64,000 bases of DNA from Psammoneis japonica (lineage: Eukaryota), in assembly GCA_008632985.1 (NCBI GenBank), contig QPGO01000168.1, forward strand, positions 62,001 through 126,000, in the 5' to 3' direction. Position numbers and translations under genes: made by a program. The notes below the pieces were generated by a model that was given only the letters and a program-made list of their open reading frames with translations, was not told the DNA's origin and did no database searches. How positions within the stretch are numbered: the first letter of the stretch is position 1; each line of letters begins with the position of its first letter. Of the stretch, positions 6,436-43,875 are shown piece by piece.

Positions 6436-8206
6436 TCCAAAAACAAACCCACCCATCTTGTGTGTGGCACCAGCAGTGCTCCTCTCAACAAAGTTGTGCC
6501 CAAAAACAGTCTGCTGTGCTGAAAGAGAAGCGTTGGCTCCCAACTCATGTTTGGTCACTCTTGCTTGTGAGAAATTTTATTTCAAAACCAGGAGGCCAAG
6601 AAGAATGTGCACAACTTCTTCTGCAAGCAAGTGACAAAATGGGTGTTTTTGCACATGTGTGCACGAGCTGAAGAAGAAATGATTGATTTGTTGTGTGCAA
6701 CTTTAGATCTCACTGCGCAGAAAGACCAAGTGTGAAAGTGAGACTTCAGTGTGACCAAAATGGTCCACTTTTGCTGAATCTTTGCATTTTGGTTGGGTGG
6801 CTTGGCAAACAAACAAAAAAATTGCTGGCGCATGCTCACCGCAAGCTCTTCAATGAGTGTGCAGACTTTTGTCCTCAACTTTACAAAATCATTGATTTTG
6901 CAGTGACACGATGCATCTCTTTTGCACACCAAAACTTTGGAGCATTGTGTGCACACACATGCACACACACACACAGCTCTTCTGTGTGCACTGGCGCTGA
7001 GAGCGCAGGAGCTCCTGTGTGACAAAATGGCGCCAACTCACAAAAAGGAAGGATGCACGGCTCTCATGTTTAAAAAAAAACACTGTCAAGCATGCAACCT
7101 CGGGTGTGCTCTCAACAGCTGTCAAGAAACTTTCAACAAGCATGCAACCTTGTGCTGGGGCACACTCTCAAAACAGCTGTCAACAAATTGCAAACAAAGC
7201 GGCACATGACAAAAAGAGAGATCTTTTTTTTTGCACTGGCAAATGCTGCCTGCCATGCATTTGACAGCAAGATGCTGCATGGCAAGAGAGACAGTGGTGT
7301 GTGTGCATTGTGAGAAACGAGCTTCCGCGCAGCAGCAGCTAAAAAAAATTGCCCTGCTTTGTCTTGTGTGTGCTTTTACTCTGCCCCAGCAAGTGTGTTC
7401 TTTTGGGCCACCAAAGTGCCAAGTCAAAAACTGTGAGGGCTGGTGGCTGCTCTCATGTGAGTGTGTGTGTGCAAGAGACACAACACACCTTGGTGCACAG
7501 CTTGCGCCTGCAGGAGCAGAGAGTTGGCACAGCCAGCACCACACCACAACAGAAAAATGCTTTTGCCTTTTTCCACAGAGAGAGGAGAGCACCATGCGCA
7601 TTGTCTTTTTTTCTTTTCTTTTTTTTCTTTTATGCAACAAGAGTCATTCACAACCTTGCACACACAAAATGCATCATGTTTCCACAAAACAGGTCAAACA
7701 CACACAACACAACAACAAGGCACGCGCATTGCAAGACTGGCAGCACACATTTTTTTTTCAAAAAAAGCACAAGCTGGCATGGTGCATAAGGTGTTTCGGG
7801 TCAGTCATTGTACAGACATTTTCGTTTATCATGTAGGCCTTAAACGCTATAAATTTGAATGATGTATAAGTCATTGTGAAATGGACATTTTCGAATTTTT
7901 TCCATGTCGCATCTAGAAAGGAACATTCAAACTATTCATGATTGAATGTTGTGGATACATTTCCCTCCAAAAAATTCACTGGCGCGCATCAATCTCGCGA
8001 GTGCGTGTGGGGGAACACCGAGAAAACAACATGGGAACGCGTTGTACCTCGCATCGCGTTACTGCTGCTGCTGACGACGACTGTATTTTATTAGGTCCAG
8101 CAAGCGACACTGCAGACAAAAACAAAACGCGATATATAGAATAGAGAGAGAGTCAAGTGTGTTTGTGTGAAAAATTGCAAAGTCAAAACTAAATAAATCA
8201 ATCATC

Positions 8207-11200: not shown

Positions 11201-14200
11201 ATATTGCTAGAAACACTTCTCGGCGAAGGCAAAGGGCGTGCGTTTTAATCCAAGCGGCAGTTCGGTCGTCATTGATTAGACAGAAAGAGACGGAGGGAGC
11301 TGTCGCTATCCAGTCATGTTTCAGAAGTCATCGAACCAGACGATTCTACCAAACGATTCTTGCCGGCCTCATTGCGTTTCAGGCCGTAACGCGTGGTCGT
11401 ATCGTACGTAACGCAATCGCACGGAGAGAACGGGCGGCCCGAACAATTCAATCTTGTGCTCGCACTTTGGCTGTGCGGTCGTCATTGAGGAGGCAGAAGG
11501 AGGAGAATGGAGCCATTGTTATCCAGTCGTGTGTGAGACGCCATCAAAGTAAATGCATATTCCAAACGGTTATGGTAGGCGTCACCTCATTGCAAGCTAT
11601 AACGCGTGGCAGCATAGAACGAAACGCAAGCATTAGGAGAGAACAGGCGGCGCGTACAATACCGTCTGGTGCCAGCGATTTTCTCAGTTCGCAGGAAGCC
11701 AACGCGGAAGAAGTCGGGGAACGACAAGAACCCCAAACACTTGCAACTGACGAAATGGCGGTTATCAAATTCCAGTCAATCGTGCGGGCGTTTCTTATGT
11801 CTTTGTCCTATCAACGACAGAGGAACGCGTGCATCAAAATTCAAAGTGCTACAAGAGGCATGCTGAAGAGGCTCGAATGGAAAGAGCTCTGTAACCGCGT
11901 TATTCTCATCCAGGCTTTGTGTCGCAAGCATCAGGCGATGCAGGAATATGAAACTTCCACCCGCAGTATTCCGTATGTACAGGCTCTGGTCCGCGGGACA
12001 AACGAAAAAAGGTCGTATGCGAAGAAACGAGCGAGCGTGATTGCAATCCAGTCCATTTCACGAACATTCCTTGAAACGTCGTCCTTTCGCCGCCACAGGA
12101 ATGCGTCGATTATTATCCAAGCAGCTTCCAGAAGATACTTGTCCTTGCTGCGGTATCGAACAATTCTGACTGGTGTTGTGTCACTACAAGCTTCGGCACG
12201 TGGGACCGCGGAAAGAAAGCGCTTCGGTGAGGTGTCCGCCGCAATATTGATGCTTCAGTCAGTGGCCAGGGGATTTCTGGAACGAAGTGTCTTGTTACGA
12301 CAACGGCGTGCTGCCACCCTAATTCAGAGTAGGAGAAGGGGAATGGTACAAAGGAAACAGACAAATGAGCTTCGCTCAAGTCTGATTCTTCAGTCGCTTG
12401 TCCGCAGTTTTGTCGCTTCAAAATCCTTTCAACGACAAAGACAAGCCTCCGTTATTATCCAAAGTTCTGTGAGGGGCGTACTTGCGCGAAAAAACCAAAA
12501 AAACACAGCCGGTTTAGATGTCGCACAGTACCCATTGGAGAGTTTGATCGCTGCACAGTCTATGGCTCGAGCGCTTCTCTGTACAACTGCTTATCAACAA
12601 AAGAAAAAGTCGTGCGTCAGAATTCAAGCAGTCGCGAGAGGATACATGTCGAGACAGAAACTGGAAAAGCTGCACTCTCGTGCGAATCTCAGGTACCAGA
12701 TGGCAATCCGTGGTGTGACCCTTTTGCAGGCTCGTTTCCGCGGAAAAAACGAGAGGCAGGCCATTGCGCGTTTGACGGAGAAGGCGATTGTAGTCCAGTC
12801 CATTGCGCGCGCCTTTATTTGCACTTCGTCCTTTAACCGCAAGAGAAGTTCGTCCATTGCCATCCAAGCAGCCACACGAGGGATGCAGGCAAGGAGTCAG
12901 GATACTGCGAAAAGCTCGAGCGCGGTGCGCATTCAAGCTCTGGCCAGGGGATACCAGGGAAGGCGGGAGTACGAAACAATAAAATACAGAATCGTTCTCT
13001 TGCAGGCTATAGTTCGCGGAATGTCCCAAAGAAAGGTGACATCGACTAGGAGAAAATCTGTGGTTTTGCTGCAGTCTTGCGCCCGTGCCTTTATTTCTTC
13101 AAGAGAGTTCAAACAACAGCGACTTGCTGCGATATCCATTCAGCGGAGAACGCGAAGGATGAATTTGAGATCTTGCTTGAACGACCGGCGCCACTCTGCG
13201 GTTGTGCTTCAGTCTTATGCCCGAGCCTTTATTGCCGCTAGAGCTTTCAAGCAACAGCGACTTGCTGCAATATCCATCCAGCGGAGAACACGAGGAATGA
13301 ACGTGAGACGTTCCGTGAACGACCGGCGCCACTCTGCGGTTGTGCTTCAGTCTTATGCCCGTGCCTTTGTTGCCGTCAGAGCTTTCGAACAACAGCGACT
13401 TGCTGCAATATCCATCCAGCGTTCAACACGAGGAATGAACGCGAGACGTTCCGTGAAAGACCGGCAGCAATCTGTGATATTGCTTCAGTCTTGTGCCCGT
13501 GCCTTTATTGCCACCAAAGCTTTCGAACAACAGCGACTTGCTGCTATATCTATTCAGCGAGGAACACGAGGAATGAACGCGAGACGTTCCGTGAACGACC
13601 GACAGAAATCTGTGATTTTGCTTCAGTCTTGTGCCCGTGCCTTTATTGCTTCGAGAGCTTTCGAACAACAACGACTTGCTGCTATATCTATTCAGCGGAC
13701 AACACGAGGAAGGAACGCGAGACGTTCCGTGACGGACCTGCATCACGCTGCGAGCATTATTCAGTCTGCAGCCAGACTCTACATGCAGAGCCTGCGTGAA
13801 ACTGACATCAGAGACAACGAGTCACGGACAATACCCAGGGACCCTGAAAGCTCCCAGGTAGAGTATCAATCGCAAGAGGTATTCTCCTTTTCACGCACTG
13901 AAATGCATGCTCATCTGCTGGCTCTCGAGTCCAAACGCCGATCAACTTATGAACGAAAGTTGGAATCGTGTTTGCTGCGTTGGCGATCATCACTCCAGCT
14001 GCTACGAGCTGGTGTTTTTGAAACGGAACGAGCCGAACGACTAATTTTGGGATCGGCGATTGTAAACCAAGCCTGCGCCGATGCCATGACTTCCATCTAC
14101 AATGATGTACTCTTCGATGATGATGGAAATGCTGTCGCCGACGAACGAAGACAGATGCAGCTATTGGAAGAACGCAGCAAATCTCGTGGTGGCGACAACG

Positions 14201-15516
14201 AACGGTCTTCCGAAGAACTTAGGTTGCTGGGATCTCTTGTAGAATGTCACGTTGTGCTCGCTGAGCAGTTTGCTGAGAATGCCACCTTTGTGGTGAATGA
14301 AGTGACTGAGGAATTTTCTAATTTTCGCGAACTCTCGGAAGCTAAAGTCGACGATGTCAAGCAAATGGGGGACGCCACGATTAAAGAGTTGAAGGAAGCA
14401 GAGAGCAGGGTCTTGGAAGCCTGGGGTAAGTACAATGAGAGCGCCTTGGGCTGCGTATTGTTATGAAGTTCTCGCTCAGTTGTTGTTTTGCTTCTTTAAA
14501 TTTATTTAGATGCGTACGATGCGGTGGCAGCGGAACAGTTGACACAAGGCAACAACCTGTTAGACAGTCCGTCGGGGTCGGGAAAAAGCAATGCATCTTC
14601 CGAACCTCGCGCCGACCTCTGGCTCGTTGAAATGCGGTATCGCTTTGCTGTGGCTCACCAGTCGTCGATATGGGAAAAGGCATCCGATTTGTTTCAAATT
14701 ATCATCAAAACCGAATTCACTCGTCGAACGCGTCTGAAAGAAGTGTTGATTGACGTTGTTCCTCGGCAGCGGCGTTTGTTTTCAATCACGGCGTCAACAC
14801 AAGCACAAGTCCTTCAAGAGTTGGTTGACCGCGATGAGACAAGAGAACAAATTGAAGTAGAAATGAAGAAGTATGTCCAAAGTGTTGTCGCTAGCGGTGA
14901 TCAAATCGAGAGCTTTGCAGAAGAAGACTATGATTTCGCCGTCCACGGAGGATCAGTGACGGATAGCTCGTTGTCTCCTCTGGCGAATCGACTCGTCCAT
15001 ACTGCGGTCATTGTTGAATTGACAAGCTTTCGAGGGTGTTGGCAGAAAATGCTTGCTGTTGTGACTTTGGATCATTACATGCACCTCTTTGTGATGCCAT
15101 CCAGCGTGGACCCAGCCTTATCGACAAGCGAGATGCTACTGGAACTCCCAACTCCAGAGTCAGACGATGAGAATCACATTACAGGCATTTTAAAAGACAT
15201 TGATCCTGCGGATACCATCTTTTTGCCCAAGAGCGTTGCATCGCCGAATGAGCAGGGCTATATCTTTCTAACCGAAACTCGGGTGGGAAGGTTTGGGAAT
15301 CCGACAGCTCGCAAACTACTGCTCAGGACCGATCTCCAGGAAGACACCCAAAAGCTGTTGTCAGCGATTCATCGTGACAGCCACGCCGCGGAGGTGTCGA
15401 GTGAAACAACGGGAGATTTGAGTGAAAGTGACAGCGACCACTCCGCGTTAGGAAGAATGATGGGAGAAACAAACATACCAAGCAACGATGCATTCCAGTT
15501 TGCACATGGCCATTGA
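8207..15516 (+). CDS. Large IQ-motif repeat (calmodulin-binding) protein with C-terminal coiled-coil/BAR-like and PH-like region
   Basis: 2049-aa ORF 8317-14466 carries many IQxxxRGxxxR motifs. Phase-1 intron 14426-14509 (gtaag...tttag) joins in frame to ORF 14524-15516. The likely true start MKAKECICG at 8207 lies in another frame, implying a frameshift near 8300-8320. Confidence 0.8.
13057..13746 (+). repeat. Coding tandem repeat, about 5 x 138 bp (46 aa, two IQ motifs per unit)
   Basis: gaccggcgccactctgcg recurs at 13183 and 13321 (138-bp period). Unit is S(A/V)(V/I)(V/L)LQS(Y/C)ARAF...QQRLAAISIQR.TRGMN.RRSV.DR. Confidence 0.9.
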
Positions 15517-16435
15517 GAGACGTTTGAAATTGGCATGCCGGCCTGCAAAATTGCTTGCGGTATGAGGCTGTTGCGGATCAGATTTGAGCTGGAAGCGAGT
15601 AATTACCTGGGAAAGATTGCCTGAGCTGGACGACTACAATGAAAGGGATATGAAATCAAGTTCCTGCTAAATACGCATTGTGGTTGCTACGATTTTGTTC
15701 AGCTTTCGTACAAGCCCGCCGACGACGGCTTCGGCCCAAAAATCTCAACCTGCCGCACCGGTGTAGTGCATGGCGGAGGTGTTCCCTGGAAGGGTTTGAG
15801 TGACAATGGACCACGGAATGGAGAAAGTTTGGCACACAAGGATCCAATCGAAAAAGGTTTGCCAGAAAAGAGACATTGGACGCCAGACGTGGCGAAGCGA
15901 ATCGAGAATCTGTCACAGAGTCAACCACTGTTTTTGGCGTTCGCTCGAAACTTGGCAGCCAACAAACTCATAGACTAGGCTGCACCCTTCTGTAACATTG
16001 CTATAATCAGGGCTATAAGGAATTCTCTTGTGGGTGTTATCAGTACTACTCTCTAGAGTAGAGTCACTCTTGATTTGTAGCTACTAAGTAGCTACTACTG
16101 GCTAGAGTAGAGTGTAGAGATGAAGAGACTTGACTTGGGCCGCCCTCTTTTTGCTCCTCTAATGCGCAAGCTTTCGGTTTTGGGCATTTTCAATTTTTGT
16201 ACCTTCCAACATTTTCATGTTCAGGAATGAACATTGTGAAATGATTTTGACTTATACAAGAATGAATGTTTCATTTGCGAGAAACATTTTGGAAAAAAAA
16301 GAAAAAAGCGGCAACGAGAAAGACAGACGGTGCTCAGCTCAGTGCTCAACATGATGCCATCCATGCAGGGATGAGCGTTGTGACTCTGTTTAATTCTTGT
16401 TGTCCCTCTGACTTCTTATAAACATCTTGCATGTT

Positions 16436-18163
16436 ATGATGGACCCCACTTTGGAGGACATTGAATCCAAACGACGAATCTCTTATGCTCCGAAATTAGC
16501 ACACATTTCCGAACAATGGCGTGTCTCTCGCGAATTGTTGAAATCGGGTGTTTCCGAAACGGCCCGAGCCGAGCGAATCATGCTGGGAACGTCCTTGGTA
16601 CATCAAGCCCGTGCCGATGCCATGCAAGCCATGTACATGGATGTTTTGTTTGATGACGAGCTCAATTCTGTGGTGGATGAGCGAAAACAAAAGTCGCTCT
16701 ACAAGCAACGGAGAAAAATGGGATTTGACGCGTGTGGGAAAAAGACGAAAAAGAAAAATCAAAAAGGAGGCATGCTAACGACGCTTGCGCAGAGTCAATC
16801 TACTATTGCCAAGCAGTTTGCAGAAGATGCCTTGTTGGTTACGACACATATTGCTCATGAAACGTCGGCTTTTCGAAAAGAGTACCAAACGCGAGTTCAA
16901 CGGTTGACGCAACGAGGCGATGAAATGCTGGAGCAATTGGAATCTGTGGAAAAAGAAGCTTGTTCTGCGTGGGGTATGTTTCAAGATTGTATATATGTTG
17001 CGTTCATTTCTCTTGGTTTCGCATCTTACGGAGATTATTCTCAACCAACCGCTTGCTTTCTTTCCTCTCTTGCCCACCGCACAGACGCTTTTCATTCAAC
17101 ATCTGTCTCTCTGAACGCAGATGGACAACCCACTCTGAGTAGCGGCAGCAGCAAACGACCTCGATCATGGCGAGGCCTCACATCCATCGAGACAGACTTT
17201 GATGCCGACGACGAGCGAAACGTGTCCGAACCCATTCCAAGCATCCCGGAAGCCAAGGCATTCTGGAAGAAAAAGCCATTGTTGTCGGGCTCTGACCTTC
17301 AAGTCGAGTACGGATTGGCCGTGGTGAAACAAACAAACTTATGGAGTAAACTATCCCCGGAACTATCGGAATTGCTGGAAATGGCGGCCAAGTTGGAAGC
17401 GGAACGGCAAGAAAAAATGTTGGAGTTTTTGCGGGATTATGTTCCCGGACAACGGCGGCTCTTTGGCGCTGCGGCAGCGTCACAATCTCAAGTATTGGAT
17501 GAATTGCAAGCCGATGACGACCACAACCGCTTGTATCCTGACGTGTCGAGTCTGTTGGAGGAAGACGGCTCGATTCTTCGTGAACAAGACAATGTTGATA
17601 TATTTCAAGCCAAGGAAATACCGCTCACCTCGAATTTGGTTTCGTCCATCAAGGTGGTGGAACGAAGTGACTCCAAAACCAAAGACTGGAGCAAGGTACT
17701 GGCGGTTGTCACGCATGATGACTATTTGCATCTTTTCAAATTGCCGCCAACTTCATCGGCATCCGTATCAAATCCAGAAAAAGTCTTTATGGAATTGCTT
17801 CCTAAAAACACACCTCTGTTTCCATCCAAGAAGAGTGATGAAGAAGCTACCGAAACATCGAGTGCATCCAGCCAAAGTGAGAATAGCATCAAGGACTTTA
17901 CTCCATTGGATTCGTGGTTCTTGCCGAATGCTAGTGTCAGTGTGCGAGGAGACCAGGGGCGAGAGATTGAAGTAACGAGTGCAAAGGGCAATGGGGGTTA
18001 CTTTTCACGAAAGAAGAAATTATTGATGCGAATCGATGCAAAGTCTTCCCCGGAAGACAAAGCTGCGTGGATGGATATTTTACGTCTGACAAGGACTCCT
18101 CAAAGCAACGAGGCGGCTACTAGTACAGATGAAGGTGCGCATGCAAAGGTAACTCGAGTTTAA
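16436..18163 (+). CDS. Coiled-coil/BAR-like plus PH-like protein, tandem paralog of the C-terminus of the upstream IQ gene
   Basis: KRRISY...ETARAERIMLG...DVLFDD aligns with KRRSTY...ETERAERLILG...DVLFDD. WSKVLAVVTHDDYLHLF matches WQKMLAVVTLDHYMHLF. A 111-bp in-frame intron 16974-17084 sits at the homologous AW|D position. Confidence 0.8.
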   Translation: MMDPTLEDIESKRRISYAPKLAHISEQWRVSRELLKSGVSETARAERIMLGTSLVHQARADAMQAMYMDVLFDDELNSVVDERKQKSLYKQRRKMGFDACGKKTKKKNQKGGMLTTLAQSQSTIAKQFAEDALLVTTHIAHETSAFRKEYQTRVQRLTQRGDEMLEQLESVEKEACSAWGMFQDCIYVAFISLGFASYGDYSQPTACFLSSLAHRTDAFHSTSVSLNADGQPTLSSGSSKRPRSWRGLTSIETDFDADDERNVSEPIPSIPEAKAFWKKKPLLSGSDLQVEYGLAVVKQTNLWSKLSPELSELLEMAAKLEAERQEKMLEFLRDYVPGQRRLFGAAAASQSQVLDELQADDDHNRLYPDVSSLLEEDGSILREQDNVDIFQAKEIPLTSNLVSSIKVVERSDSKTKDWSKVLAVVTHDDYLHLFKLPPTSSASVSNPEKVFMELLPKNTPLFPSKKSDEEATETSSASSQSENSIKDFTPLDSWFLPNASVSVRGDQGREIEVTSAKGNGGYFSRKKKLLMRIDAKSSPEDKAAWMDILRLTRTPQSNEAATSTDEGAHAKVTRV

Positions 18164-18539
18164 AGCATCAACTCTAGAGTCAACGTGAAAGTTCAAATTC
18201 GATTATGACAGCATCGACACTAAAAAAAAGAGTCTAGGGCCTGAACATCGGGATGACTCGTCTCTAGCTAGTAGAGGCCCTGTTTCTGGGGCTATCCCGA
18301 TCTCTATCTTCCGCGTCAACGCTCCGAGTTTATGAAAAAAAAAAGAAGAGGAAAAGGAGGAGGAAGAGAGAGAGGCGTTCGCAGTGCATGCAATGCGTTC
18401 AACGCTCACGCACGACGCCCAGACGATTGGCGCTTTCGACGCAGTCGCAGCTCCAGCAAACACTCTAAAGAACAGTGACACACCATGAGCCATCCAAGTG
18501 CATTATCCACTGCTTCATTGCTTATAGAAATGCAGAAAA

Positions 18540-24480: not shown

Positions 24481-24516
24481 TCATCAGGGCCCTAGCTCAT
24501 TGCACGTTGCATCATC

Positions 24517-25499: not shown

Positions 25500-26330
25500 T
25501 GTGCAACATGAACAGACAAGCCGGAGATGGGACTCCTTGCTTGTCTATGACATTGAGATGCCATGCACCAGGTGCTGCTGCACTCTGATCTGGCAACGAA
25601 ACAGGGATCGCCGTCCCATTTGAAGCACAGGCAAGATTGAGCCACCGTGCATTGCCATTGCAGGCTTGGTGGCCATCACCTTTTCAATGTCCAATGAACC
25701 ACCGCTGACAGTAATTGAAAAAGACATGCCAGATGCAAGAGTGCTGTGGGACAGGTGTCAATCGTTGGATGGGTCGCCAGATTTCCCGGCTGTGCGTCAA
25801 ACAAGCAGCTGCGGTGTCAGACCTGGCATTTGGAAAGGTGAGAAGTCCTGGTGCTCCTCCACCCCCCAAAAAAACGAGCTGTTGGGCATGATGAGTCCAG
25901 AAGAATGACAAAGGCATGGAACATCTTGTGGTGGACCCTTGGTCACGGCGTTTGTAACAGGATCCCATGCTTCAACATGTCTTGCATGGTGTTGACAAGC
26001 ACAGTCACCAGAACCTTGATCTTTGCCGTTCCAAACTCTGGAACCACCATTGATCATGACTCGACCATCCAGAAGTGTCGTCATGGCAGCGTCAATCCGC
26101 AGTGTTGACAGAGGCGCTTTCGGGGCAAAGGTCGAGTTGGAGGCATCGGCGACATTCCACGACCATGTCGTTCCATCTTCGGCATCCATCACAGCAACTT
26201 GATCTACATTGCACACAATGGAAGGAGCCAGCTTGTGGCCCTTGAATGGCTGAGTTCCAACCTTTTCAATCGGTCCATCTCCTTGCGCTCCCACAAGACA
26301 AATCTCGTCGTCATGTTCGTCCACAATCAT
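25500..26330 (-). pseudogene. Galactose oxidase/glyoxal oxidase-like (AA5 copper radical oxidase) C-terminal relic
   Basis: TTLLDGRVMINGG, VEAWDPVTN, CHSSGLIMPN (family consensus YHSxxxLLPDG) and APGAWHLNVIDKQGVPS (C-terminal Ig-like domain) are spread over several frames. Confidence 0.65.
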
Positions 26331-29300
26331 GACAAGAATCTCTCCTTTTCAAGTGGTGCACTGGGAATGCCAAGCACAAGTTAGAGAATGCAAACGATGT
26401 TCCCTTGGGATTTGCACTGGAAAACTTGACTCTCACAGTGCCCGCCAGATGTGGGACACAAAGTGTTTTTTTCATGAAAAGGGAGGGCATTCACACAGTG
26501 GTTGTCTTGTCAGGTTGCCATTGGCGGTGCAGCATAGAATCTTGCTCAACTGGCAAAAAAAGAGCACACTGCATTGATTTTGTTTGGTCTGGTTCGCCAT
26601 GTCCAACTGAGTGAATGCGATGCATTTGAGATGCTGGAAAAAAGATCCAACGAGAGTCTCCCACAGCACAAAAATTGAAAATGACCACTGCAAAGAAGGA
26701 GAGGCTGCCATGTGCACAGCAAGAGCAGCACCAGAGCCATCACCACTCCTTGGCTTTTCTGGAAATAAATTCAAACATGCAGCAGACCATTTGCATGAAA
26801 TTGTTGTTGCATCAAGAAACAAGGAATCCTTTCTGTGCAATTTCAGGCAAGAAGCAAACAAAACATTGAAGTCACTCAAGGACATGACTTGCCTTGTGTG
26901 CAACTTTCAGGTGCTTCTCAATTCATTGGAGAACATGTGGCACTTGGATTGCAGTCATTGTTTTGCTCAAAATGAAAAACAACTGCCATGATGCTTGAGA
27001 AGACATTCCCAGAAAGATTGCACAACTTGGTCAAGACATGTTTTCACAACCATGTTGCTGTGTCCAAGAGGATTGGCACAAGCACTGCAAAGCACCCAAT
27101 CAATGGAATGACATCTCTTGGCTTGCTGGCACATGCGCGCAGCAGTTCCTGGCAAATGGGGCTCCATCTCTCAAGCTGTTTTTGCTGGAACTGTTGTGTT
27201 GTAGATGCCTCACAGAAAGCATCTCAGAGAAGTTTGTGAAGCTTCCACCTGCCAGCAAGAGCAGGGTGTGAGATGTGGCTGTGGACAATGGCCCATCTTT
27301 TGACAACTTTGAAAATCAGGCACTGCCCCAAGCCCGCCATCCAATGCTGGGTGGTGCCAAAGGATCAACAACTCAACTCATCTTTGCAAAGACACCCTCC
27401 TTTGTCTGTCTTGGATGCCATCCAGCCCTGTCCAAGTCCATGTGACAAAATGTGCCCTTTTCATCAACCACAACTTGAGAGTCTTTCATCAAATTGAGGT
27501 GCTCATGGACCATGCCATCTGGCCTTTTCAATTCCTCTTTGATTCACTTCAAAATGATTTTGGGTTCGCAATCATGGGACAAATGCACCAAAGCTGCATT
27601 TGGCATGCTCAAAGTTGCAACAATGAGCTGCCACCAACAAGCTTGGTTCTGGGATGCATCTCATCTTTTGTGTGATCACAACTGGGTTGCCCCAAAAAAT
27701 TGATGACATTGGCTTGCAAACAGCTTCTCTTGGGGGTTGACAAACACAGTCAATCAGCACAGAGAGCTGCTCTTCTTGGGTTGGGTTCACCTTGTGGGGC
27801 CGCTCCATTCCCAACTTTTCAATGCCACAATTTGTGTTCAACACCTCTTCAAGGCAACATGCCATTTCCATGGTTGAATGGAATTTTTCCATTGCTGCCA
27901 GATGTCTGTTGATTGATTGGTGGACAAATGACAGCAGCATTTGTGCTTGCCACAGTTGCTTCTGCCAGTGCTTCAATCCATGTCCAACCATGGACACAAC
28001 CCACTCATGACTGTTTGTGTGCTTTTGATTTTGGCTTGAAGATTTGACTCATGTGCTTGCAGTTTGACATTTTTCTTTAGAACATCATTTGTCTCATTGG
28101 CGTTCTCCATCTGTTTTGCAGCTTGACTGCCATGATGACATAACTCATCAAAACCATTTTTGTTGCTGAGAATCAGTGTTCATTCATGTCCATGCAAATG
28201 AAGGTGCACAGGGAGAGACAAAGAGCCAAACTCTTGATGAGCAGAATGAAGCAACAACTCAACAGACCACCTTCATCTTTGGCTTTGTGCTTTGCCATGC
28301 ACCACTGTCCTTGGTCTAATTGGTGAGATGAACAAAGGATGAGAAGATGAGACAAAACAACAAATTTGTTGTTGGCCATTGTTGGTCATCACCAATCTGA
28401 CCTGCCATGCTCACACACACCTCTTGCAAGGACCAGGCAGCCATTGTCTGTGCATCATCTGTTGCCTCTCATCTCACGGCATCCTGACTTGTGTGATGGC
28501 AGCACTCGTGCAGAAACAGGCTGCATCAACCATGCCAACATGCCTCATCTTGGAAGTGTGAAATGTCATTGTGCAAAGCACGCTCCTCCTCCGATGCAGT
28601 CTGACTTGAGAGGACCTGCTGAAAGAGCAGGCAGCCACATGCTCAAAAAGAAAGCGGTGCTGAAAACCTGCCAAGGTGGGTGCTTTTTTTGCTGAAAAGG
28701 CAGATGGGAAAGGGGGTTGCCTGTCACCCAGCACCACCCACAAAAACCACTTTTGGGACAATTTTCTGCTGCTGGGCTTGGCTTTTTTTGCCAAACCACA
28801 GTTTCCTTTTTGCTGTGGGTCCTGCCGCTGAAGTGCAGTGGGCACATGATGCATGCATGAAATGGCATCCCTGTGGTGACTCTGTGGCTGCTGTTTTCTC
28901 AACATCACCTTCAAGAGCCACAGCAGCCAACAGCACATTGCATCTCTTGAACTCATGTGCAGGAGAATTGGCATGAAGTGAGAGTGTGACAGGCTTGTTG
29001 TTGACTTGTGTGGTTGAAAAGCAACAGGCAAACATTTTGACATTTCAGCTGTTTTCTCTTGAGCAGTGGACTTCAAAGCACAGAAAAGCACACGTGCGTG
29101 TGATGTTGGCTGCACTCTGTTAAAGTGTGCAAGCACCGTGGTGAGTTTGTTGTCATTGAAGAAGCACACTGCATTCATGGCAGTGATTGTCTCATTGCAT
29201 TTTGACAAGTCATGGAAAATTTGGAACTCCAAATGTTTGTGGTTGCAGCTGTGCAAACAGGTGTGAGTTCTCAATCTTCCAGAGGTTGTCAAACACAGCC

Positions 29301-29797
29301 TTCATTGGTTTTTGCACATGACATTGAAATGAGTGAATGAAGCATTTGCGCTGACCATGAAGAAGGGCAATGTGCATCAGCACGCATGCACAAACACTGG
29401 GGGGCTGCTGCCCCAGCAAAAAAAAATTGATGCTCAGCAAAAAAAAACAGGCACAGCTCTGTTGGGCACAACAAAGGGAGTCATTGCAACATGTGCCAGC
29501 ATTGCCAGAGGGCTCATGCACACACACACCACACCACCGCTGCTCTTGTGCACTGCATTGTTTTGTTTTGTTTTGTTTTGTTTTGCAGACTCTCTGCCAC
29601 ACCCAGCAAAACACTGCTGGCAGCCACCCAGTTTGAAGTCTCTCTGCCAAATGCAGCATGACAGCCATGGGAGGTGCCTCCTTGCACCTTTTAGTCTCAG
29701 TTGGTGGCAACCAAGTTGAGCAAGTTGAAGAAAAAGAAGCCTGGGCAAGAAGCCTTCTTTTCAGCCAGCGCCGCCAGAAGAAAAGAAGGAGTCAGTC

Positions 29798-30073
29798 TGA
29801 CAGGATTTGAACAGGATTCAGGTGCGCGCGAAATGTCGCGTGCTGTTTAGTTTGTAGCGCACAGTTTTGTGTGCTTTGGTTCCGCGCGTTCGCGCGCGAT
29901 GCAGTTTGCTTTCGAGCCACAAGGCTCACAAGAATGACAACAGCAGCCCGATCACACTGACTTGCACGTCTTTCGGCTCCTGTGACGGTCTCTGAGCGGA
30001 GACTCATCTGCCATTTAGACAGCAGCAAGGAGTTGTTGTTTGAATTCTTGCCATTTGCCTTCAATTTCTGTCA
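29798..30073 (+). repeat. 5' LTR
   Basis: Ungapped alignment to 36013-36288 with 23 mismatches in 276 bp (manual count). Confidence 0.97.
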
Positions 30074-31030
30074 GATTGACAGTCTTGCTCATTGTCAACC
30101 CATTGAGCAATCGCCATCATCGTCGTTGATTTGCCGACGACGCCACTTCAATTCTGCGTGGACCTCCGTGTGTGTTCTACGCACATCGGCAAGTCCACGC
30201 GCATTCAATGCCAGGCATCGGCAGGAAGTTAACGTCACCGTCAAGTCTCCTCACCGCTGGACATCTGGATTGATTGTGCCACCTTTTGTCGCTGAAGACA
30301 TGCATTCAACGGCCACATCCAATTCCACCCTTGATCCTCATCCCTTGACACACCCATTCAACGGTTAACAGTCAAGAACCCTGCATGTTCAAGGATCTTC
30401 GTCGCTGCAGACATGTGTGCACACAAATCTTCACGGCCAAGAACTTGAACCCACTCTTCGGACTGCGGCTTTGCCACCACTCTACAAGCACGCCAAGTCT
30501 GTTGTGCCTCATCTACCCCAGACCACTGGTGCTCTGCAGTTCTGCCAGGTCCACGAGGACGACTGTGAGAGCAAGCAGCCGTGATCACAGCCTGCGTTGG
30601 GGCGAGGGTGTTTTTCCCACGTTTGTTCGTTCGTCCGTCCACAGCGCCTGACGCCTGCGTCAACTGGCCAGCCTGATCGGGAAATCCAACCAACATAAAA
30701 TGAGAGCGGTTCGGGGGTCTTGTCCACCTCTAGTCAGCTCACCTGCAGGGGTTTACAACCCGCCACTCCGCTCGCAAGCAACCCAAAGTGCCACCAGCTG
30801 CGGGTTCGGACGTGCCGGCACAACTCCACGGACCAGATGGGAAGTTTGGCACTTGACAACGAATGGGATGACACAACCCGGCGACTTCTGATTTTAAGAC
30901 ATTCAAGATTTCAAGTCAAGTCCATTTCAAGTCAAGTCCATTTCCAAGTCAAGTCCATTGTCACCCAAGTTTCAAGTCCACCTTCGCGTCCCAACAAGAA
31001 TCGCCTGTCCTGACACCGCTTTTGTCTGCC

Positions 31031-34000
31031 ATGGTTCTCACTCGTCAGCAACAAGCTCCAGTTGGTCTGTGCATTGTCAAAGCACACGAAGGTCTTGATG
31101 TTGCCAATGACTCCTCATTGTTCACGCATGAGGAGTTCCTTGCCTGCTGCCTCAGCCCCGACCACATGTCGTCTGTGTCTGTCGGAAGCTCACCCCTCGC
31201 ACCTCCGCATGTCACCAACCCGACCAAGGCACGCGACCCGGTGCGAGACTTCAAGCAAGGTGTCAAGCGTGACCCCACTGCTTTCACGGCTCTCAAATCT
31301 GACAAGCAGTGGCACACTTGGCACACCTCACTTGTGGCACAAGCCCGTGCCCAAGACGTCGAGTGTGCTCTAGACTCGTCGTACAAACCGACCAGCCCCG
31401 AAGACAAACTGCTCTTTGCTGAACAGCAAAAGCACGTGTTCGCCATCTTCAAACGCATCCTTCTCACCGACAAGGGCAAGGCTCTCATTCGCGAAAATGT
31501 GGGGTCTTCTGATGCCCAGACCATCTGCCGCGCCTTGTCCGAGCATGCGCTCGCCTCCACCTGCACATCTGTCGAGTCCTCCACCCTGCTCACGTGCCTC
31601 ACCACCGCACGTCTTGGTGATGGCACTTGGAAAGGTCCGACCCACGGGTTCATGCTTCATTGGCAGGATCGGTTGCGCAAGTGCAAGGCACTCATCCCGG
31701 CCAGCGACCACTTCTCTGAAGGACAGAAGCGCGTCATGCTCAAGAATGCCGCACATCCTGTCGAGGAACTCCGCGCCGTCAAGAACCAAGCTGATCAGCA
31801 TCGCACGCAGAGTGGCAAGAGCCTCACACACGATCAACATTGTGGCTTGCTCCTCTCCGCGGCGGCTCAATGCGACAGTGCGTTTCAACCCAAGACGACA
31901 CCTCGAGCTCCCCGACGCGCCATGTGCGCACACGACGTCTGCTCCGAGGAACCATCCGATGATGTGTTCCATGACATCGACAGCGACATTGACGTCCTTC
32001 AGGCTAACGCTGCCTGCACCCGCGGTCCCAGCCTCGCCGGTGACCAATGGAAACGTCTCCCTCCCGACCACCAACGGATTTGGAATTCGTTGCCCCATTC
32101 CTCCAAGGCAATCATCCTTGAGCATTCTCGTCCGCCTCCCCGCAACCCGCGAGCCAGCAACTGCCATGAGTCCGTTGCGGTCAACCTTCACGACCAACGA
32201 CTTGGGAGTGATGGTGATGTCAACTTGTCCAACACGACTCCTGCTGACTCTGGTGACCCCACTCCAAATGTGGATGCCACTTCAGACAATCCCATTCTGG
32301 CGCACCTCACCAAGTGCACGCCACTGCCACCCGGTGATCTGCAATGCCTGTTGTCTCCTTGCCAAGCCCCCAACGCCAGTCGACCGGGCCCATCCGCTGC
32401 TCCCTCTGCCTCGCCTGCTGCTCCAGATGACACAGAACTCAACGGCCGCACTTGCCGCCGCGTCAACAACCACAATGTCATTTGCTCTGCCTCCGCTCAT
32501 CGCTCCACACACACTGGTGCTCTAGTCGATCGTGGAGCCAACGGCGGCATTGCTGGTGACGACGTTCGTGTCATTGCACGCACCTCTCGCCAAGTCGATG
32601 TTCAGGGCATTGACGACCATCAATTGGTGGACATCCCCATTGTCACCGCTGGTGCCGTCATTGAGACACAGCGTGGTCCCGTCCTTGCCATCCTCCATCA
32701 CTCCTGATGGCTGTGTCACCCCAATTGACATCAAGGGTGGCCTGCCTCATGTTGCCATGCGGCCCTGCACTGACGACAAATGGGACGCCCTGCCACATGT
32801 CATCCTTGCTGGTGATGACACATGGGATCCTTCCGTCCTCGATCACTCTGTCACTGACGACGACCAGTGGTGCAGACGCGATCTCTGACCCACAGGATGA
32901 TCCCACTGCCAACCCATTTGATGAACACGGCAACTGCCGTCACCGTGTTGTTGTCAACAAGGCCATCATGTCCGCCTCCTTGTCTGCCGACACCCCTGCT
33001 GTCGACTCTGGTTGCACCAGTGCCCAACTGTTTGTTGGCACGGAGTCTGCTGTCACTGACGTCTGCGGCACCAAAACGGACAAAGAGTTTGTCAACACAC
33101 TCAAGGATCAGATCCGTGAGCGTGGTGCTCCATCCAAACTCATTGGCGACCATGCTCAAGTTGAGATCAGCAACAAGGTGCTCGGGATTCTACGAGCCTT
33201 GTTTGTCTCCAGCTGGCAAAGCGAGCCTCACCAGCAACACCAAACCTTTGCAGAACGTCGACACCAGACCGTGAAGCGCGTGGCGAACACCGTCATGGAC
33301 CGTTTCGGTTCGCCTGCCCACACATGGCTGCTGGCGCTCATGTGCGTGTGCTTCATGCTCAACCACACAGCGTCCCCACGTCTCCATTGGCGCACGCCCC
33401 TCGAGACTCTCACTGGCTCCACCCCGGACATCAGCCCATTGCTTCGCTTTCACTGGTGGGAACCCGTGTGCTTCCACCTCGATGACTCCGATTGGCCATC
33501 CGAATCCCATGAGTTGCGTGGGCGTTTTGTTGGCATTGCTGAGCACGTCGGCCACCAGATGACCTTCAAGATTCTCTCTGACGAGACTCAGAAGATCCTC
33601 TGCCGGTCCAACACACGATCCGCTGCCACTGATCCTGCCGCTTGAAACCTGCGTCTTGATCCTCCTGATGGGGAGCCACCTGAACCCATCATCAAATCTT
33701 GCCATGATGACAACCCCGTCGATTCACCTGGTGGGGAGATCAGGACACCCAAGATGCCAGTTTTTGATCCACAAGACATCATCGGACGCACCTTCCTCAT
33801 GCAGCCACAAGAGGACGGACAACGCCACAGAGCTCGCATCGTCAAGGCCGTTGAAGATCATGAATGGAAAGTGAGCGGCAACCCCGAGCTCACCAAGTTC
33901 ATCTGCTCTGTCAACAATGACGAATGCAAGGAAGTCCTGGCCTGCAATGACATCATGAATCGCATTGAGCAAGAAGACAAAGACACTGCTGTTTGGAAAT

Positions 34001-35960
34001 TTCGACGCATTGTGTCACACGAAGGACCTCTGAAGCCTCATGACCCAACCTGGAAAGGCTCAAGCTACAACATCATGCTTGAATGGGAAAGTGGGGAGAT
34101 CACGTCCGAGCCTCTTGCCATCATCGCCAAGGACGACCCTGTCACCTGCGCCATCTGTGCACGAGAGAATGGACTTCTCGACACTGATGGCTGGAAGTGG
34201 TTCCGCACCATCGCGAGGTGCCAGAAGAAGCTATTTCGCATGGCCAACCAAGCCAAGCTTCGCTCCTTCCGCACTGCACCTCGCTGCAAGTGCGGATGTG
34301 AAGTCCCCCGGAACTGCAAACATGCCATGTCACCAGATGAACGCAACGGCAACCGCAAATGGGGAGATGCAACTAATCTCGAGATGGACCAACTCAATGA
34401 GTGCAAAGTCTTTCATGACTGTGGGCACTCCGAGTCTTCCACTCCTCCTGTGGGACACAAGAAGATCCGAGTGCACCCAGTGCACGACGTGAAACACGAC
34501 GGCCGCCACAAGGCACGACTCGCAGCCGATGGGCACCTCACGGACGTGCCCATCGACAGTGTCTGCTCCGAAGCAGTCTCCCTCCGTGGCCTTTGGTTGA
34601 TGATTTTCCTGGCCGAACTCAACGAGTTGGAGACATGGGCCGCTGACATTGGCAATGCCTGCCTTGAAGCCACCGCCAAGGAGAAGCTGCACATTGCAGC
34701 TGGACCCAAATTTGGCAAACTCAAAGGCCACATTCTTGTCATCCACAAGGCCCTGCATGGACTGCGCAGCTCCGGCCTCCGCTGGCACGAGCGCTTCGCC
34801 GACTGCCTGCAAGCTGAAGGTTTCTTCCCCTGCCGTGCCGAACCCGACATTTGGATGCACAGGAACGGCGACCACTACGAACACATTGCCGTTTGTGTGG
34901 ATGACCTCGCCATTGCCATGAAGGACCCTCAATCTTTCGTCGACACTCTCACAGAAAAGCACAAGTTCAAGCTCAAGGGTGCGGGACCGATTGAGTTCCA
35001 TCTGGGCTGTGACTTTTCCCGGGACCCTGACGGCACCTTGTGCCTGTCTCCGCGCAAGTGCATCGAACGCATGGTCGACAGCTGCACACGACTGTTTGGG
35101 GAGAAACCTGCCACCAATGCCCTGTCACCTCTGGAGAAGGATGACCACCCCGAACTGGACACTTCTGAACTGCTGGGGCCCAATGGCATTCAACAGTTCC
35201 AGTCTCTTGTTGGTTCTCTCCAATGGGCAGTGTCCCTTGGTCGAATTGACATTGCCACGGCCGTCATGTCACTCTCTAGCTTCCGAGCTGCGCCCCGTCA
35301 AGGCCACTTGGATCGTGCCAAACGCGTCTGTGGGCACCTCTCCAAGATGCGACACGGCGCTCTCCGCGTTTGCACGGAAGAGCCCGACTGTTCGGATCTC
35401 CCTGCTCTGGCCTGTGAATGGATGCATTCCGTGTGCGGCAAAACAGAAGAGATGATCCCGAAGGACGCTCCACCGCCCCTTGGCAAGTTCGTCACTGCCA
35501 CCCACTGCGTCGATGCAAACTTGCACCATTGCATGCTCACCGGATGCTCTGTCATGGGAATGCTCCACTTCCTCAACAAATTCCCGGCTGATTGGTTCTC
35601 TAAGAAGCAAGCCACCGTTGAGACTGTGACCTGCGGGTCTGAATTTGTTGCCGCAAGGACTTGTGTCAGCAGATTGTCAACCTGCGCATCACCCTGCGCT
35701 GCCTCGGCATCCCGATCCGTGACACCAGTCACATGTTCGGTGACAACAAGTTGGTTGTAGACAGTGCCACCATCCCGCACTCCAAGTTACACAAGTGACA
35801 CACCGCACTGTCGTTCCACCGTGTGCATGAGGCAATTGCCTCTGGTTGCCTTGAGCTCCACTTCATCGAAGGCTCCCGCAACCCTGCTGACATTCTCAGC
35901 AAGCATTGGGGTCACTCCCAAGTCTGGGACCTTCCCTGCCCCCTCATGTTCTGGAACTTC
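31031..35960 (+). pseudogene. copia gag-pol (disrupted)
   Basis: Start MVLTRQQ; protease ALVDRGANGG; integrase GAPSKLIGDHAQVEIS and SEPHQQHQTFAERR; RT DIGNACLEA, KALHGLRSSG, AVCVDD; RNase H CVDANL, GSEFVAART, MFGDN, NPADILSK. Contains frameshifts, deletions and TGA stops. Confidence 0.95.
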
Positions 35961-36012
35961 ATTCCATCCGAAGTCGAATCTGTTTCTGTGACTCCTCAAA
36001 CAAACTGGGGAG

Positions 36013-36288
36013 TGACAGGATTTGAACAGGATTTGGGTGCGCATGAAATGTCGCGCGCTGTTCAGTTTGCCGCGCACAGTTTTGTGTGCTTTAGTTCCGC
36101 GCGTTCTCGCACGATGCAGTTTGCTTTCGAGCCACAAGGCTCACAAGAACAACAACAGCAGCCCGATCACACCGACTTGCACGTCTTTCGGCTCCTGCAA
36201 CGGTCTCTGAGTGGAGACTCATCTGCTGTTTAGACAGCAGTGAGGAGTCATTGTTTGAATTCTTGCCATTTGCCTTCAATTTCTGTCA
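36013..36288 (+). repeat. 3' LTR
   Basis: Matches the 5' LTR and is followed by TSD CAGTC. Confidence 0.97.
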
Positions 36289-36642
36289 CAGTCTCTCAGC
36301 AGTGTTTTCCTTCTTCCTTTTTGTTGGCATGGTGGATCTTTTGCACTGGCAGATTTGACCCTGTCAACATGGTTTGAGAGCAATGTTGCTGGAATGCATT
36401 TCATCTTTTGATTGCAGGGAGTCACCTCAGATCTGTTGAAAGTCAAAGCTGTCCCATCGCGCTTGTGTGTGTGGACACAGTGCATCTGATTCCCACCGAT
36501 GACTCTGGCAAAATGGACATGTTTGTGCACTGCAACACATGTCCATTGAAGACATCACAATTGCCCTTTCCTTGTGTGACAACATTCAGCAAGACATGTT
36601 GCATGTTGAGATTGCGGTCACATCACAACTCAACGGACAACC

Positions 36643-37860
36643 AACTTTCAACAAAAAGTTGTTGAAATTTAGATCTTTCAACAAAAAAGTTGTTGAAAGT
36701 GCAGATCTTTCAACAAAAATCTGTTGAAAGTTAGATCTTTCAACAAAAATCTGTTGAAAGTTGTGCTTTCAACAAAAACCACATCAAAGACATGTGTCAG
36801 GGTCACTGACAACATTGTTTTTAGGGTTGCACTGCAGTTGGGCAACACACAAGTCAAAGATTGTGACAAGAACAGCGCGGGCAATGCACACCTTGCCAAA
36901 GCCTAAAAGAGAGGCTTGAAGTTGGCTTGGCAGTTCAGCGCTGGTTCAGTGGTTTTAGCAGAAGCAGCTCAACAATTTGTGGTGGCAGTTTCAAAATTTG
37001 TGGCAGTGGCTTCAGTGTGCAAAGCACAGTGATTTCAGAATTTGCGGCTTTGCAATTGTCAATTTCTTGAAATCTGCCAGCAGTGGAGCACCTTCCATGG
37101 TTCCAAGTGAGCCACCTTCCAATGCACTTCGCACCAAGCAAAGCTCCCACCTGGCAGCAATCCACCTCCCATCTCACCCAGTGCATCATCAGGTGCTGTC
37201 TGCAGCTCTAAGTGAGAATCATCCCAGTGCCAAAACACCGGCTGCTCCATCCTCATGCTGCATCTTGTGTGGTTTCATCCTCAGACAAAGCACCAAGTCA
37301 CAAGCAACTCCATCAGTCACACCAAGCTGCGGACATGGCTCAACTTGTCACGTCCCATTGAAGTCAACAAAGGACTTAGAAGTGAGGATGTTGGTGACAG
37401 CACCACTGAGAATCAAGTGGCGCTGACCTGCATGCTTCGTGCGCGCCATTTAAAAAAATTGAAATTGCTTTGAGGTTTCAAACAAAACAGAAATCCACAA
37501 TTCTCAATGACACACAATGGGGCCATTGCTCCCAACAATGAAAAAAGAAACGGGGAAAATGGCGCAAGCATCGTTGAGATGCCGCGCCGCAAAGTGGGCA
37601 CAGTCTGCTCACTTCATTGTGCTCGCTGCAGTTTGCTGAGGAGCAAAGTGGGAATTTCTGCAGCACATGCTGCATCCAACAATGAGTGTTGGTCATGCAC
37701 ACTTGTCTTGGATGACGTCACTTGTTCAATCAGATTTTTGTGCCGACGAGTTTTCTGTTGAAGTTGTTGAAAGTCGCGTTTTTCAACAAAAAGTTGTTGT
37801 TGAAAGTTGCGTCTTTCAACAAAAAGTCGTTGAAAGTCATTTGTTGAAAGTTGTTTGGCA
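36643..37860. repeat. Clusters of short palindromic units (ctttcaacaaaaa...tgttgaaag) at 36643-36780 and 37755-37860, likely subterminal repeats of a non-autonomous DNA transposon
   Basis: Repeated TTTCAAC / GTTGAAA inverted pairs at both ends of a ~1.2-kb segment. Confidence 0.55.
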
Positions 37861-38575
37861 GAAAATGCTGCAATGACTTTCTTGTTGTCAAAAGCCACAA
37901 AGCTGAACAAATGAGCTCATTCGTTTCCAGAGTGCAGCTGTGCACTGCTCACACATGTGGTGTGATGGGCAGCGGGCCAAATTTTGCACAGTCCAAGTCG
38001 CCAGCAGTGTCACAATGCGGACATTTGCAAAATTTTATAAAGCTGCACACAAGAATGAATCATTTCAATTTGAGTCGTAGTTTCAACAACGACTCCCAGT
38101 GGTCAAGCAGCGCGGTTTCTTGGTTTTGAGCCTTGCGCATGAGGTCGCGTTGTACCGGCAGGCAGATGCGCGAGCATGTGCGCAATCCCAACAAAACAGT
38201 CATGGGTCTCGAAGTCATTCTCGGGAGTCACAAAATGACTGTTGTTTCTTTGTATTAAATGTTGAAAAGCAATACATCATATTTTAAAGCTGGATAAAAT
38301 GACTCTTTGTTATAGCCTTTACGAGTCACCAATTAGGAATCACGATCAATTGTGTAGAAGATAGTACTGTGGAGTCCCCCTTTTTTCATTTACGCCCCTC
38401 ATCATCCATGACACTCGCAAAACCAAAAACAATCGTGTGATTGAGGTGTGAGACAACAAAACAAGAAGCCCCTGAGAATATCAGAAAAAGCATTGTCGTT
38501 ATTGTTGTTGTGTGCTTTTGATTGTATTGCATTGAATTGTGATTCAGCAAACCAATAATAGAATAAAGCAAGAAG

Positions 38576-43569: not shown

Positions 43570-43875
43570 CTGCAACCTGGACAAGAGATGTCAGCAGCTC
43601 TGACAAATTGAGCAAAGTGAGCAGCAGCAACTCAGAAATTCATGACAAATGATGTTGGAGGACATTGGTGTGACGACAATCAGCAGCACTTCCAGCCACA
43701 AAGTTGTGAGGTTGTTCCATGCCACCCTCTGTTTCAGCGATGCTGGTCATGGTGAAATGGGTGCTGTCACAGCAGCAACCAATGATTCACTCACATTTGC
43801 TCGCACCCACCCCTCGCCCTTTCGAGCAAATCTGCAGCGCTCAGCGTCAGAGTCTGCGAGATGAACAAGTTGCGT
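43570..43875 (+). repeat. Dispersed repeat, diverged copy at ~51262-51572
   Basis: Shared gacaagagatgtcagcagctctgacaaattg...gccaccctctgtttc...gcagcaaccaatgattc. Confidence 0.8.

Follow-up and report, generated by a model that had tools for sequence, protein, structure and literature searches.

A Dead Copia Element Flanked by a Target-site Duplication

The window, by which we mean the whole 64-kb stretch of DNA that was analyzed, contains a dead LTR retrotransposon of the Ty1/copia type at positions 29798-36288 (Table 1). The LTR termini read TG...CA, CAGTC directly abuts each outer end of the element, and the boundaries are exact. Target-site duplications in the Ty1/copia group are 5 bp long. 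The identical CAGTC on both sides represents such a duplication, and both LTRs must thus originate from one insertion event. A Pfam search of the element frames located a reverse transcriptase domain (RVT_2, 68.1 bits with a cut-off of 31.6), and returned no match for the frames 30872-32707 and 32665-33645 in the region before the reverse transcriptase. The reverse transcriptase frame has 1074 relatives in the protein collection, mostly from marine metagenomes and with a best identity of 62%, and PF07727 is found on every one of the relatives listed. The Atlas clusters nearest to the element protein are those of diatoms, an assignment that rests on two members only. Alignment with protein relatives extends across 32673-35975, and the frame is broken near 32870 and at 35664-35676; upstream parts of the relatives align at 32673-33009, before the reverse transcriptase. 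The copy is dead because it carries a stop codon at 33643-33645 in addition to these frame breaks, and because the catalytic YVDD motif of the reverse transcriptase reads CVDD. The GC content of the element is 56% versus 47% in its flanks.

Table 1. Features of the window discussed in the text (obs/exp, observed over expected dinucleotide frequency)
Feature	Position	Strand	Remarks
5-bp target-site duplication, left copy, CAGTC	29793..29797	.	same as 36289-36293
5' LTR, 276 bp, ends TG...CA	29798..30073	+	91.7% identity to 3' LTR
Internal region, dead Ty1/copia-type element	30074..36012	+	GC 56%, TA obs/exp 0.08, CG 0.78
704-codon open frame with reverse transcriptase (Pfam RVT_2, residues 268-477)	33646..35757	+	nearly Tyr-free
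3' LTR, 276 bp	36013..36288	+	repeat of 29798-30073
5-bp target-site duplication, right copy, CAGTC	36289..36293	.	same as 29793-29797
TA-poor, CG-poor block containing the element	25501..38000	.	
Other TA-poor blocks	1-1500, 3501-5000, 5501-7500, 19001-20000, 20501-24500		
Further TA-poor blocks	43501-48000, 50001-58000 (with N gaps), 60501-64000		
Normal gene block, internal control	8001..18500	.	TA obs/exp 0.42-0.50, CG about 1.0
IQ-motif frame, 2060 codons, uninterrupted	8284-14463	+	IQ calmodulin-binding motifs, E = 2e-57

Self-comparison and protein alignment revealed no other copy of the element within the 64-kb window, a degenerate LTR-end pattern had no match in the metagenome contigs, and an Rfam search over the whole window returned no match. 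In public run X1, 11,954 contigs align to the element at 80% likeness or more. The summed contig depth, which does not equal copy number, is 40,000-245,000 inside the element versus about 37-66 on the unique flanks, and we take it to mean only that the element family is very abundant.

The LTR Pair Differs Only in YpR Dinucleotides

Ungapped realignment of the two LTRs gives 23 mismatches over 276 positions. Six pairs of adjacent mismatches are reciprocal swaps, with CA in one LTR and TG in the other. They start at 29819, 29935, 29983, 30012, 30026, and 30034 and read CA, TG, TG, CA, CA, and TG in the 5' LTR and TG, CA, CA, TG, TG, and CA in the 3' LTR. TA is found in one LTR only at 29848 (TA/CA), 29855 (TA/CC), and 29877 (TG/TA), and the only transversions are 29856 A/C and 29892 G/T. 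In total there are 8 adjacent mismatch pairs; random placement of 23 mismatches reached at least 8 in 9 of 100,000 trials. When scored by dinucleotide state, the LTR pair contains six CA/TG sites and one site each of TA/CA, TA/TG, and TA/TA, together with 14 CG/CG, four CG/TG, and two CG/CA sites. The original prediction had claimed 23 mismatches in 276 bp, six swaps, three sites with TA in one LTR only, two transversions, and survival of CG but almost never of TA in both LTRs. All of these counts were recovered, the swaps at exactly the predicted positions, and 14 CG/CG sites indeed stand against a single TA/TA site. It overlooked the slower decay of CpG, visible at six sites where a single LTR has kept CG and its partner reads TG or CA (29827/8, 29829, 29841, 29895/6, 29958, and 29997), and the regional block structure described below. 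YpR dinucleotides cover 145 LTR positions and account for all 23 mismatches, with no mismatch at the other 131 positions. A mutation of TpA to TpG or CpA in chromosomal DNA after insertion, alongside the CpG decay, probably explains these LTR differences.

Positions 29953-29956 and 36168-36171 read CACA in both LTRs, and a contig of another copy (run X4, loose end behind 29952) has TGTG there, i.e. a double swap between copies. As a guess, the TATA of the LTR promoter might once have stood at 29953-29956.

TA Is the Likely Ancestor of the Swaps

In an alignment of the 704-codon frame and 120 relatives, we examined the 397 columns in which at least 70% of the relatives agree. The 22 conserved tyrosine (TAY) columns hold Cys 14 times, His 4 times, Trp and Phe once each, and Tyr only twice in the element, encoded by TGY, CAY, TGG, TTC, and TAC, respectively. 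Change is thus found in 20 of 22 Tyr columns versus 49 of the 375 other conserved columns (P = 9e-15). Only 2 Tyr are left in the 704-residue frame, versus 4.2% Tyr in the relatives, and Cys accounts for 4.96% of its residues versus 1.22%. Conserved Arg was kept in 22 of 29 columns and has changed to Cys (three columns), Trp (two columns), Gln (one), and His (one) in the remaining seven; counted over the CGN-type Arg columns, 7 of 26 now read Cys, Trp, Gln, or His. All conserved His (13/13), Cys (5/5), Gln (5/5), and Trp (11/11) columns are unchanged in the element, which rules out a one-step interconversion of CA and TG. The pattern over the conserved columns indicates that TA became TG or CA and that the decay of CG is real but weaker.

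Other copies of the element were compared by placing contigs of four public runs on it. In the best-supported 40 of 523 variant places, a non-random sample with no place inside an LTR, the other copies have TA where the element has CA or TG in 18 cases and CG where it has CA or TG in nine. The element itself has CG at two of these 40 places, 11 are of other kinds, and none has TA in the element and a mutated dinucleotide in the other copies.

We also calculated likelihoods for the LTR pair, using one uniform rate per dinucleotide class. Deriving all six swaps from TA yields lnL -21.1, with pTA 0.86 and pCG 0.16, and deriving all six from CG yields lnL -33.9. A two-class CpG model, in which some CpGs are fully methylated and others never, could also yield swaps. 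The pTA of 0.86 in the LTRs matches the loss of 19 of 22 Tyr codons in the reading frame, which would fit a copy that had normal TA content at insertion and lost it later. Three independent lines of evidence thus favor TA, not CG, as the probable ancestor of the swaps. The Tyr columns, the other copies, and the likelihoods (-21.1 versus -33.9) agree with the original proposal that each swap is an ancestral TA resolved on opposite strands; the same proposal had regarded a CG ancestor as less likely, and a uniform CG rate indeed predicts about 0.2 swaps rather than six.

The Changes Appear to Postdate Integration and Distort LTR Dating

The two LTRs of a retrotransposon are identical at insertion, as a consequence of reverse transcription. 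Given an intact target duplication and the presence of both TG and CA outcomes in each LTR, the changes appear to have occurred after integration, in chromosomal DNA and on either strand. The same two observations support the earlier claim of chromosomal mutation as opposed to strand-biased RNA editing. Action after integration is supported provided that the LTRs have been assembled correctly. The abundance of the family makes a mosaic LTR assembly conceivable, in which case the differences would lie between copies and the post-integration argument would be weaker. In a public run, two contigs (records 1 and 8) span the junctions between unique flank and LTR end on either side and match perfectly, record 1 extending over the swap at 29819. 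They lend weak support against a mosaic assembly, because the assembly itself may have been built from this run.

The hazard per copy is 1.97 for TA and 0.17 for CG. The absence of change at 131 non-YpR positions gives a 95% bound of 2.3% pair divergence, and a background bound of about 0.011 per copy. TpA changes at a rate that greatly exceeds this background. The naive LTR divergence is 8.3% (8.8% corrected); set against the 2.3% bound, the age of the LTRs is overstated at least about four-fold. It had been argued before that LTR-divergence dating overestimates the age of this element, and this holds, with all 23 mismatches located in YpR dinucleotides and a background indistinguishable from zero.

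TpA Loss Fills Sharply Bounded Blocks and Spares Genes

In 500-bp bins the window is bimodal, with about 37 kb TA-poor (TA obs/exp below 0.2), about 23.5 kb normal, and few intermediates. In the TA-poor blocks TA ranges over 0.01-0.15 and is often as low as 0.01-0.07, CG is 0.06-0.3, and CA and TG reach 1.7-2.2. Normal blocks have TA at 0.42-0.55 and CG at about 1, and CA and TG are not raised to that extent. Block borders lie near 1500, 3500, 5000-5500, 7500-8000, 18500-19000, 24500-25500, 38000, 43500, 48000-50000, 58000, and 60500. The copia element, for which the status as a mobile-DNA target is established, lies in such a TA-poor block. Outside the element, this block has TA at 0.04-0.07, CG at 0.26-0.48, and CA/TG at 1.6-1.9. 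The element has thus lost its TA (0.08) while retaining much of its CG (0.78) inside an older block lacking both, which indicates that TA decays first.

The normal blocks hold recognizable genes, among them the long IQ-motif frame, for which the protein collection yielded no homologue in the searched length range, and an O-fucosyltransferase (O-FucT) frame with a best match of 50% identity in the same collection. TA occurs 38, 66, and 84 times in the three codon phases of the IQ-motif frame, so that silent positions keep TA, and the non-coding spacers beside genes have TA at 0.43-0.69 (0.43-0.55 between the frames of the control block 8001-18500). The contrast between blocks is therefore not just a matter of selection on proteins. 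The IQ-motif frame also contains five tandem 138-bp units (repeats 12917-13767).

Swaps are likewise found in other repeats. Nine repeat pairs in TA-poor blocks, the LTR pair included, show 22 swaps among 189 mismatches, or 16 among 166 when the LTR pair is left out, versus a single swap among 197 mismatches in five pairs from normal blocks; one mixed-block pair has seven swaps among 61 mismatches. The TpA process is regional and wider than the element, and the gene blocks are spared.

Several repeats in the TA-poor DNA may be recorded here. The dispersed pair 50004-50344/50878-51224 has 57 mismatches, 55 of them transitions, with 11 CA/TG swaps and 12 sites at which CG is found in a single copy. 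Tandem 131-bp units at 51679-52071 adjoin an N gap, and at 53451-53633 TTTGTCAGCA-like units recur with a 10-bp period.

The TA-poor blocks outside the element contain 106 open frames of at least 110 codons, spread across all six frames because TAA and TAG are nearly gone. None of these 106 frames matches a Pfam family above the cut-off; sub-threshold matches to Kringle, GDT1, FixH, and PHD_P300 were taken as chance.

TpA Survival Differs with the Neighboring Base

The TA sites that survive in TA-poor blocks are not equally distributed over their 3' neighbors. The obs/exp ratio is 0.013 for TAT, 0.035 for TAC, 0.065 for TAG, and 0.088 for TAA, and all four trinucleotides are found at 0.43-0.56 in normal blocks. 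Tetranucleotide counts in the TA-poor blocks are 0 for ATAT, 0 for ATAC/GTAT, and 1 for GTAC, and reach 23 for TTAA and 29 for CTAA/TTAG. In the reading frame, a purine precedes the T at all four Tyr-to-His sites. Among the best 40 of 523 variant places, a pyrimidine follows the A at all seven A-to-G places, and six of the 11 T-to-C places do not fit a strict T-A-pyrimidine rule. A pyrimidine after the A is a preference, not a rule, and only the survival ranking stands. On the coding strand of frame 33646-35757, Tyr-to-Cys changes outnumber Tyr-to-His changes by 14 to 4 (P = 0.03), a possible strand or neighbor-base effect that the neighboring bases explain only partly. Strand-coordinated clusters of the APOBEC type were considered and rejected, as the two outcomes alternate both within the LTRs and from one Tyr column to the next.

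The Same Signature in a Metagenome Protein

In the metagenome copia protein P0120, one of the 120 relatives, Tyr makes up 0.85% and Cys 3.4% of the residues. The normal relatives that share about 80% identity with P0120 (L001-L008) have TA at 0.47-0.70. Of the 33 Tyr in L002 (81% identity), 13 correspond to His and 11 to Cys in P0120, and of the 33 Tyr in L003, 15 correspond to His and 11 to Cys, with no change in the reverse direction in either case. The next commonest changes in P0120 (Ile to Val, Thr to Ala, Val to Ala, and Leu to Pro or Ser) are those predicted by the conversion of TA to CA or TG. Tyr-to-Cys and Tyr-to-His changes are about equally frequent in P0120, unlike in the element frame. 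At the protein level, the same signature is thus apparent in a separate environmental record.

Proposed Mechanism

We propose the following sequence of events. A Ty1/copia-type retrotransposon with roughly normal TA content would have inserted once at 29798-36288. After insertion, TpA would have been changed to TpG or CpA in chromosomal DNA by A:T to G:C transitions that hit the TpA adenine of either strand, until about 86% of the TpA sites of each LTR, and likewise of the coding region, had been converted. A swap would then mark the same TA attacked on opposite strands in the two LTRs. In parallel, CpG sites may have decayed more slowly by C to T change, with a loss of about 15-27% of them, and beyond TpA and CpG sites the element would have undergone no measurable change. 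The process would fill sharply bounded blocks amounting to more than half of the window, and would spare gene blocks, silent sites, and spacers.

The comparisons presented here appear to establish the signature, its direction, its timing with respect to integration, its rate with respect to background, and its regional limits. As to the chemistry, we tentatively suggest, along the lines proposed for Bigelowiella natans, that a TadA/ADAT-like deaminase guided to silenced chromatin may act on the A of TpA in DNA. The blocks themselves may be selected through chromatin state, small RNAs, or repeats. Such an enzyme is favored because the T before the A is fixed, and the pyrimidine after the A fits loosely. 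TadA/ADAT-type enzymes act in a U33-A34 loop context (U-A-C), and early base editors have a preference for Y-A-C. It is conceivable, if somewhat more speculative, that a eukaryote other than Bigelowiella, whose copia relatives point toward the diatoms, possesses a genome-wide defense that would be the chemical mirror image of fungal RIP. Here, an enzyme would deaminate the A of TpA in double-stranded DNA of silenced blocks with a preference for T-A-pyrimidine, and would erase nearly every TpA, and with it every Tyr codon, TAA, and TAG, in new retrotransposons at hundreds of times the background rate and beside methyl-CpG decay.

A competitor to a TA ancestor is methylated CpG, with deamination of 5-methylcytosine in a highly mutable CpG subset giving TG in one LTR and CA in the other. 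CpG decay is certainly active in this DNA, as seen from the six LTR sites with CG in one copy and TG or CA in the other, from the seven of 26 CGN-type Arg columns that now read Cys, Trp, Gln, or His, from the nine of the best 40 of 523 places where other copies have CG, and from the CG depletion of the TA-poor blocks themselves (0.06-0.3). We nevertheless regard it as a highly improbable source of the swaps, because 14 CG/CG sites and six single decays predict about 0.2 swaps instead of six, because the likelihood falls from -21.1 to -33.9, and because it leaves unexplained the loss of 20 of 22 Tyr beside 22 of 29 Arg kept, the TA found in other copies at 18 of the best 40 of 523 places, and a TA of 0.08 beside a CG of 0.78 in the element. 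If, on the other hand, the changes had been made before integration, by ADAR-type A-to-I editing of RNA or by deamination of cDNA, the LTR differences would have to come from an assembly of mixed copies. The abundance of the family makes a mosaic conceivable and the copies do differ from one another at TA-derived sites; ADAR-type enzymes also favor a U before the edited A, according to the main text of a recent preprint on Bigelowiella natans (bioRxiv 10.64898/2026.01.13.699255). However, the LTRs have exact boundaries and an undamaged target duplication, contig records 1 and 8 join the flanks to the LTR ends with no difference (record 1 across 29819), both directions of change are present in each LTR, and the TA-poor blocks reach well past the element into DNA with no retroelement signal. 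In addition, the preprint's main text describes a B. natans signature that arose de novo in integrated DNA (bioRxiv 10.64898/2026.01.13.699255). Taken together, these points make a pre-integration origin very unlikely.

Post-integration mutation of TpA might also proceed by another chemistry, the main alternative to adenine deamination, in which the T of TpA is modified, for example to 5-hydroxymethyluracil by a TET/JBP-type enzyme, and mispairing with G or faulty repair then converts T to C. TpA is palindromic, so that sequence alone cannot reveal which base is attacked, and 5-hydroxymethyluracil is enriched at TpA in dinoflagellate DNA. T in TpA and 5-methylcytosine in CpG decay in the same blocks, which makes a single pyrimidine-directed pathway possible. 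The survival ranking from TAT (0.013) to TAA (0.088) instead resembles the U-A-C loop context of TadA-type enzymes mentioned above, and we consider modification of the T unlikely, though it deserves to be kept in mind. We attach almost no credence to the view that no special process is at work and that the pattern reflects selection against TA and CG, or a base-calling artifact at modified bases. TA is low even in the gene blocks (0.42-0.55), yet selection cannot act on a dead copy whose YVDD has become CVDD, the gene blocks retain silent TA sites, contigs from a public run reproduce the flank-LTR junctions exactly, and the same signature is present in the separate metagenome record P0120. GC-biased gene conversion was rejected as well, as it is not TpA-specific and is opposed by the change of CpG to TpG in the same blocks.

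Implications

Our analysis suggests a second, independent case of a process described once, in a 2026 preprint, which would thus not be peculiar to a single alga or to inserted viruses. TpA hypermutation may be a general means of killing integrated mobile DNA. If the defense outlined above is real, it would be widespread among marine protists and would have shaped more than half of this genome region. The LTR pair represents a natural before-and-after experiment, from which action after integration, on both strands, and near saturation can be read. It also illustrates that LTR-divergence dating is invalid in such genomes, where a naive divergence of 8.3% accompanies a true background indistinguishable from zero. 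The disappearance of TAA and TAG leaves open frames in all six frames that mislead gene finders, and the mutated elements escape protein searches. Should the enzyme prove to be a natural DNA adenine deaminase, it would be of interest to the base-editing field.

Comparison with Known Systems

The only TpA-specific hypermutation report in the literature we searched is the preprint on B. natans (Mettrop et al., bioRxiv 10.64898/2026.01.13.699255). According to its main text, 230 of 231 mutations in two viral insertions of B. natans mutation-accumulation lines consisted of A to G or T to C changes, every one of them in TpA, at a rate of about 6e-7 per site per generation or about 1000 times background (bioRxiv 10.64898/2026.01.13.699255). 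Reverse transcriptase and DDE domains are reported there to be overrepresented among TpA-poor coding sequences, and the authors propose that a DNA adenine deaminase resembling ADAT2 is responsible (bioRxiv 10.64898/2026.01.13.699255). The large viral target is described as single-copy, which argues against repeat induction in that alga (bioRxiv 10.64898/2026.01.13.699255).

As in that account, the dominant change in our window is TpA to TpG or CpA only, on both strands of chromosomal DNA, here with a minor CpG component, and the rate exceeds background by orders of magnitude in particular regions only. The extent differs. In B. natans, as far as the preprint's main text goes, the two viral insertions still hold many TpA (rho 0.45 in one), and only 5% of 1-kb windows have rho TpA of 0.43 or less (bioRxiv 10.64898/2026.01.13.699255). 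The target described here is an LTR retrotransposon rather than a viral insertion and is close to saturation (0.08), more than half of the 64-kb window lies below 0.2, and even the gene blocks are at 0.42-0.55. The main text of the preprint reports neither CpG loss in the same blocks nor a neighbor-base preference, both of which are seen here, and the words LTR, retrotransposon, trinucleotide, and context are absent from it. Given these TpA levels, and because the gene frames compared with the protein collection had at best a 50% match, the annotated B. natans reference is an unlikely source of the window; Atlas matches bearing on the host were of mixed phyla. We conclude that this is a new case of TpA hypermutation in a host apparently other than B. 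natans, and that its new features are the proof of post-integration action from an LTR pair, the near saturation, the block-wide extent, and the neighbor-base preference.

The slower second process, seen at six LTR sites and seven Arg codons, resembles the decay of methylated CpG in silenced transposons, whereas the swaps and the loss of Tyr are beyond the reach of such decay. ADAR hyperediting of RNA and APOBEC editing of cDNA likewise produce deaminase-made clusters of transitions in retroelements, but they act before integration and on one strand and leave the LTRs identical. In place of one-strand A to G changes and identical LTRs, we found 23 LTR differences, with TG and CA outcomes in each LTR. 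Fungal RIP provides a parallel in outcome, as dinucleotide-specific transitions at the DNA level ruin integrated mobile elements on both strands and inflate LTR divergence. RIP, however, consists of C to T changes, for the most part at CpA, by which TpA is created and GC lowered. In our element, TA is at 0.08 and the conserved columns point to the opposite direction of change, so that TpA is destroyed and GC rises.
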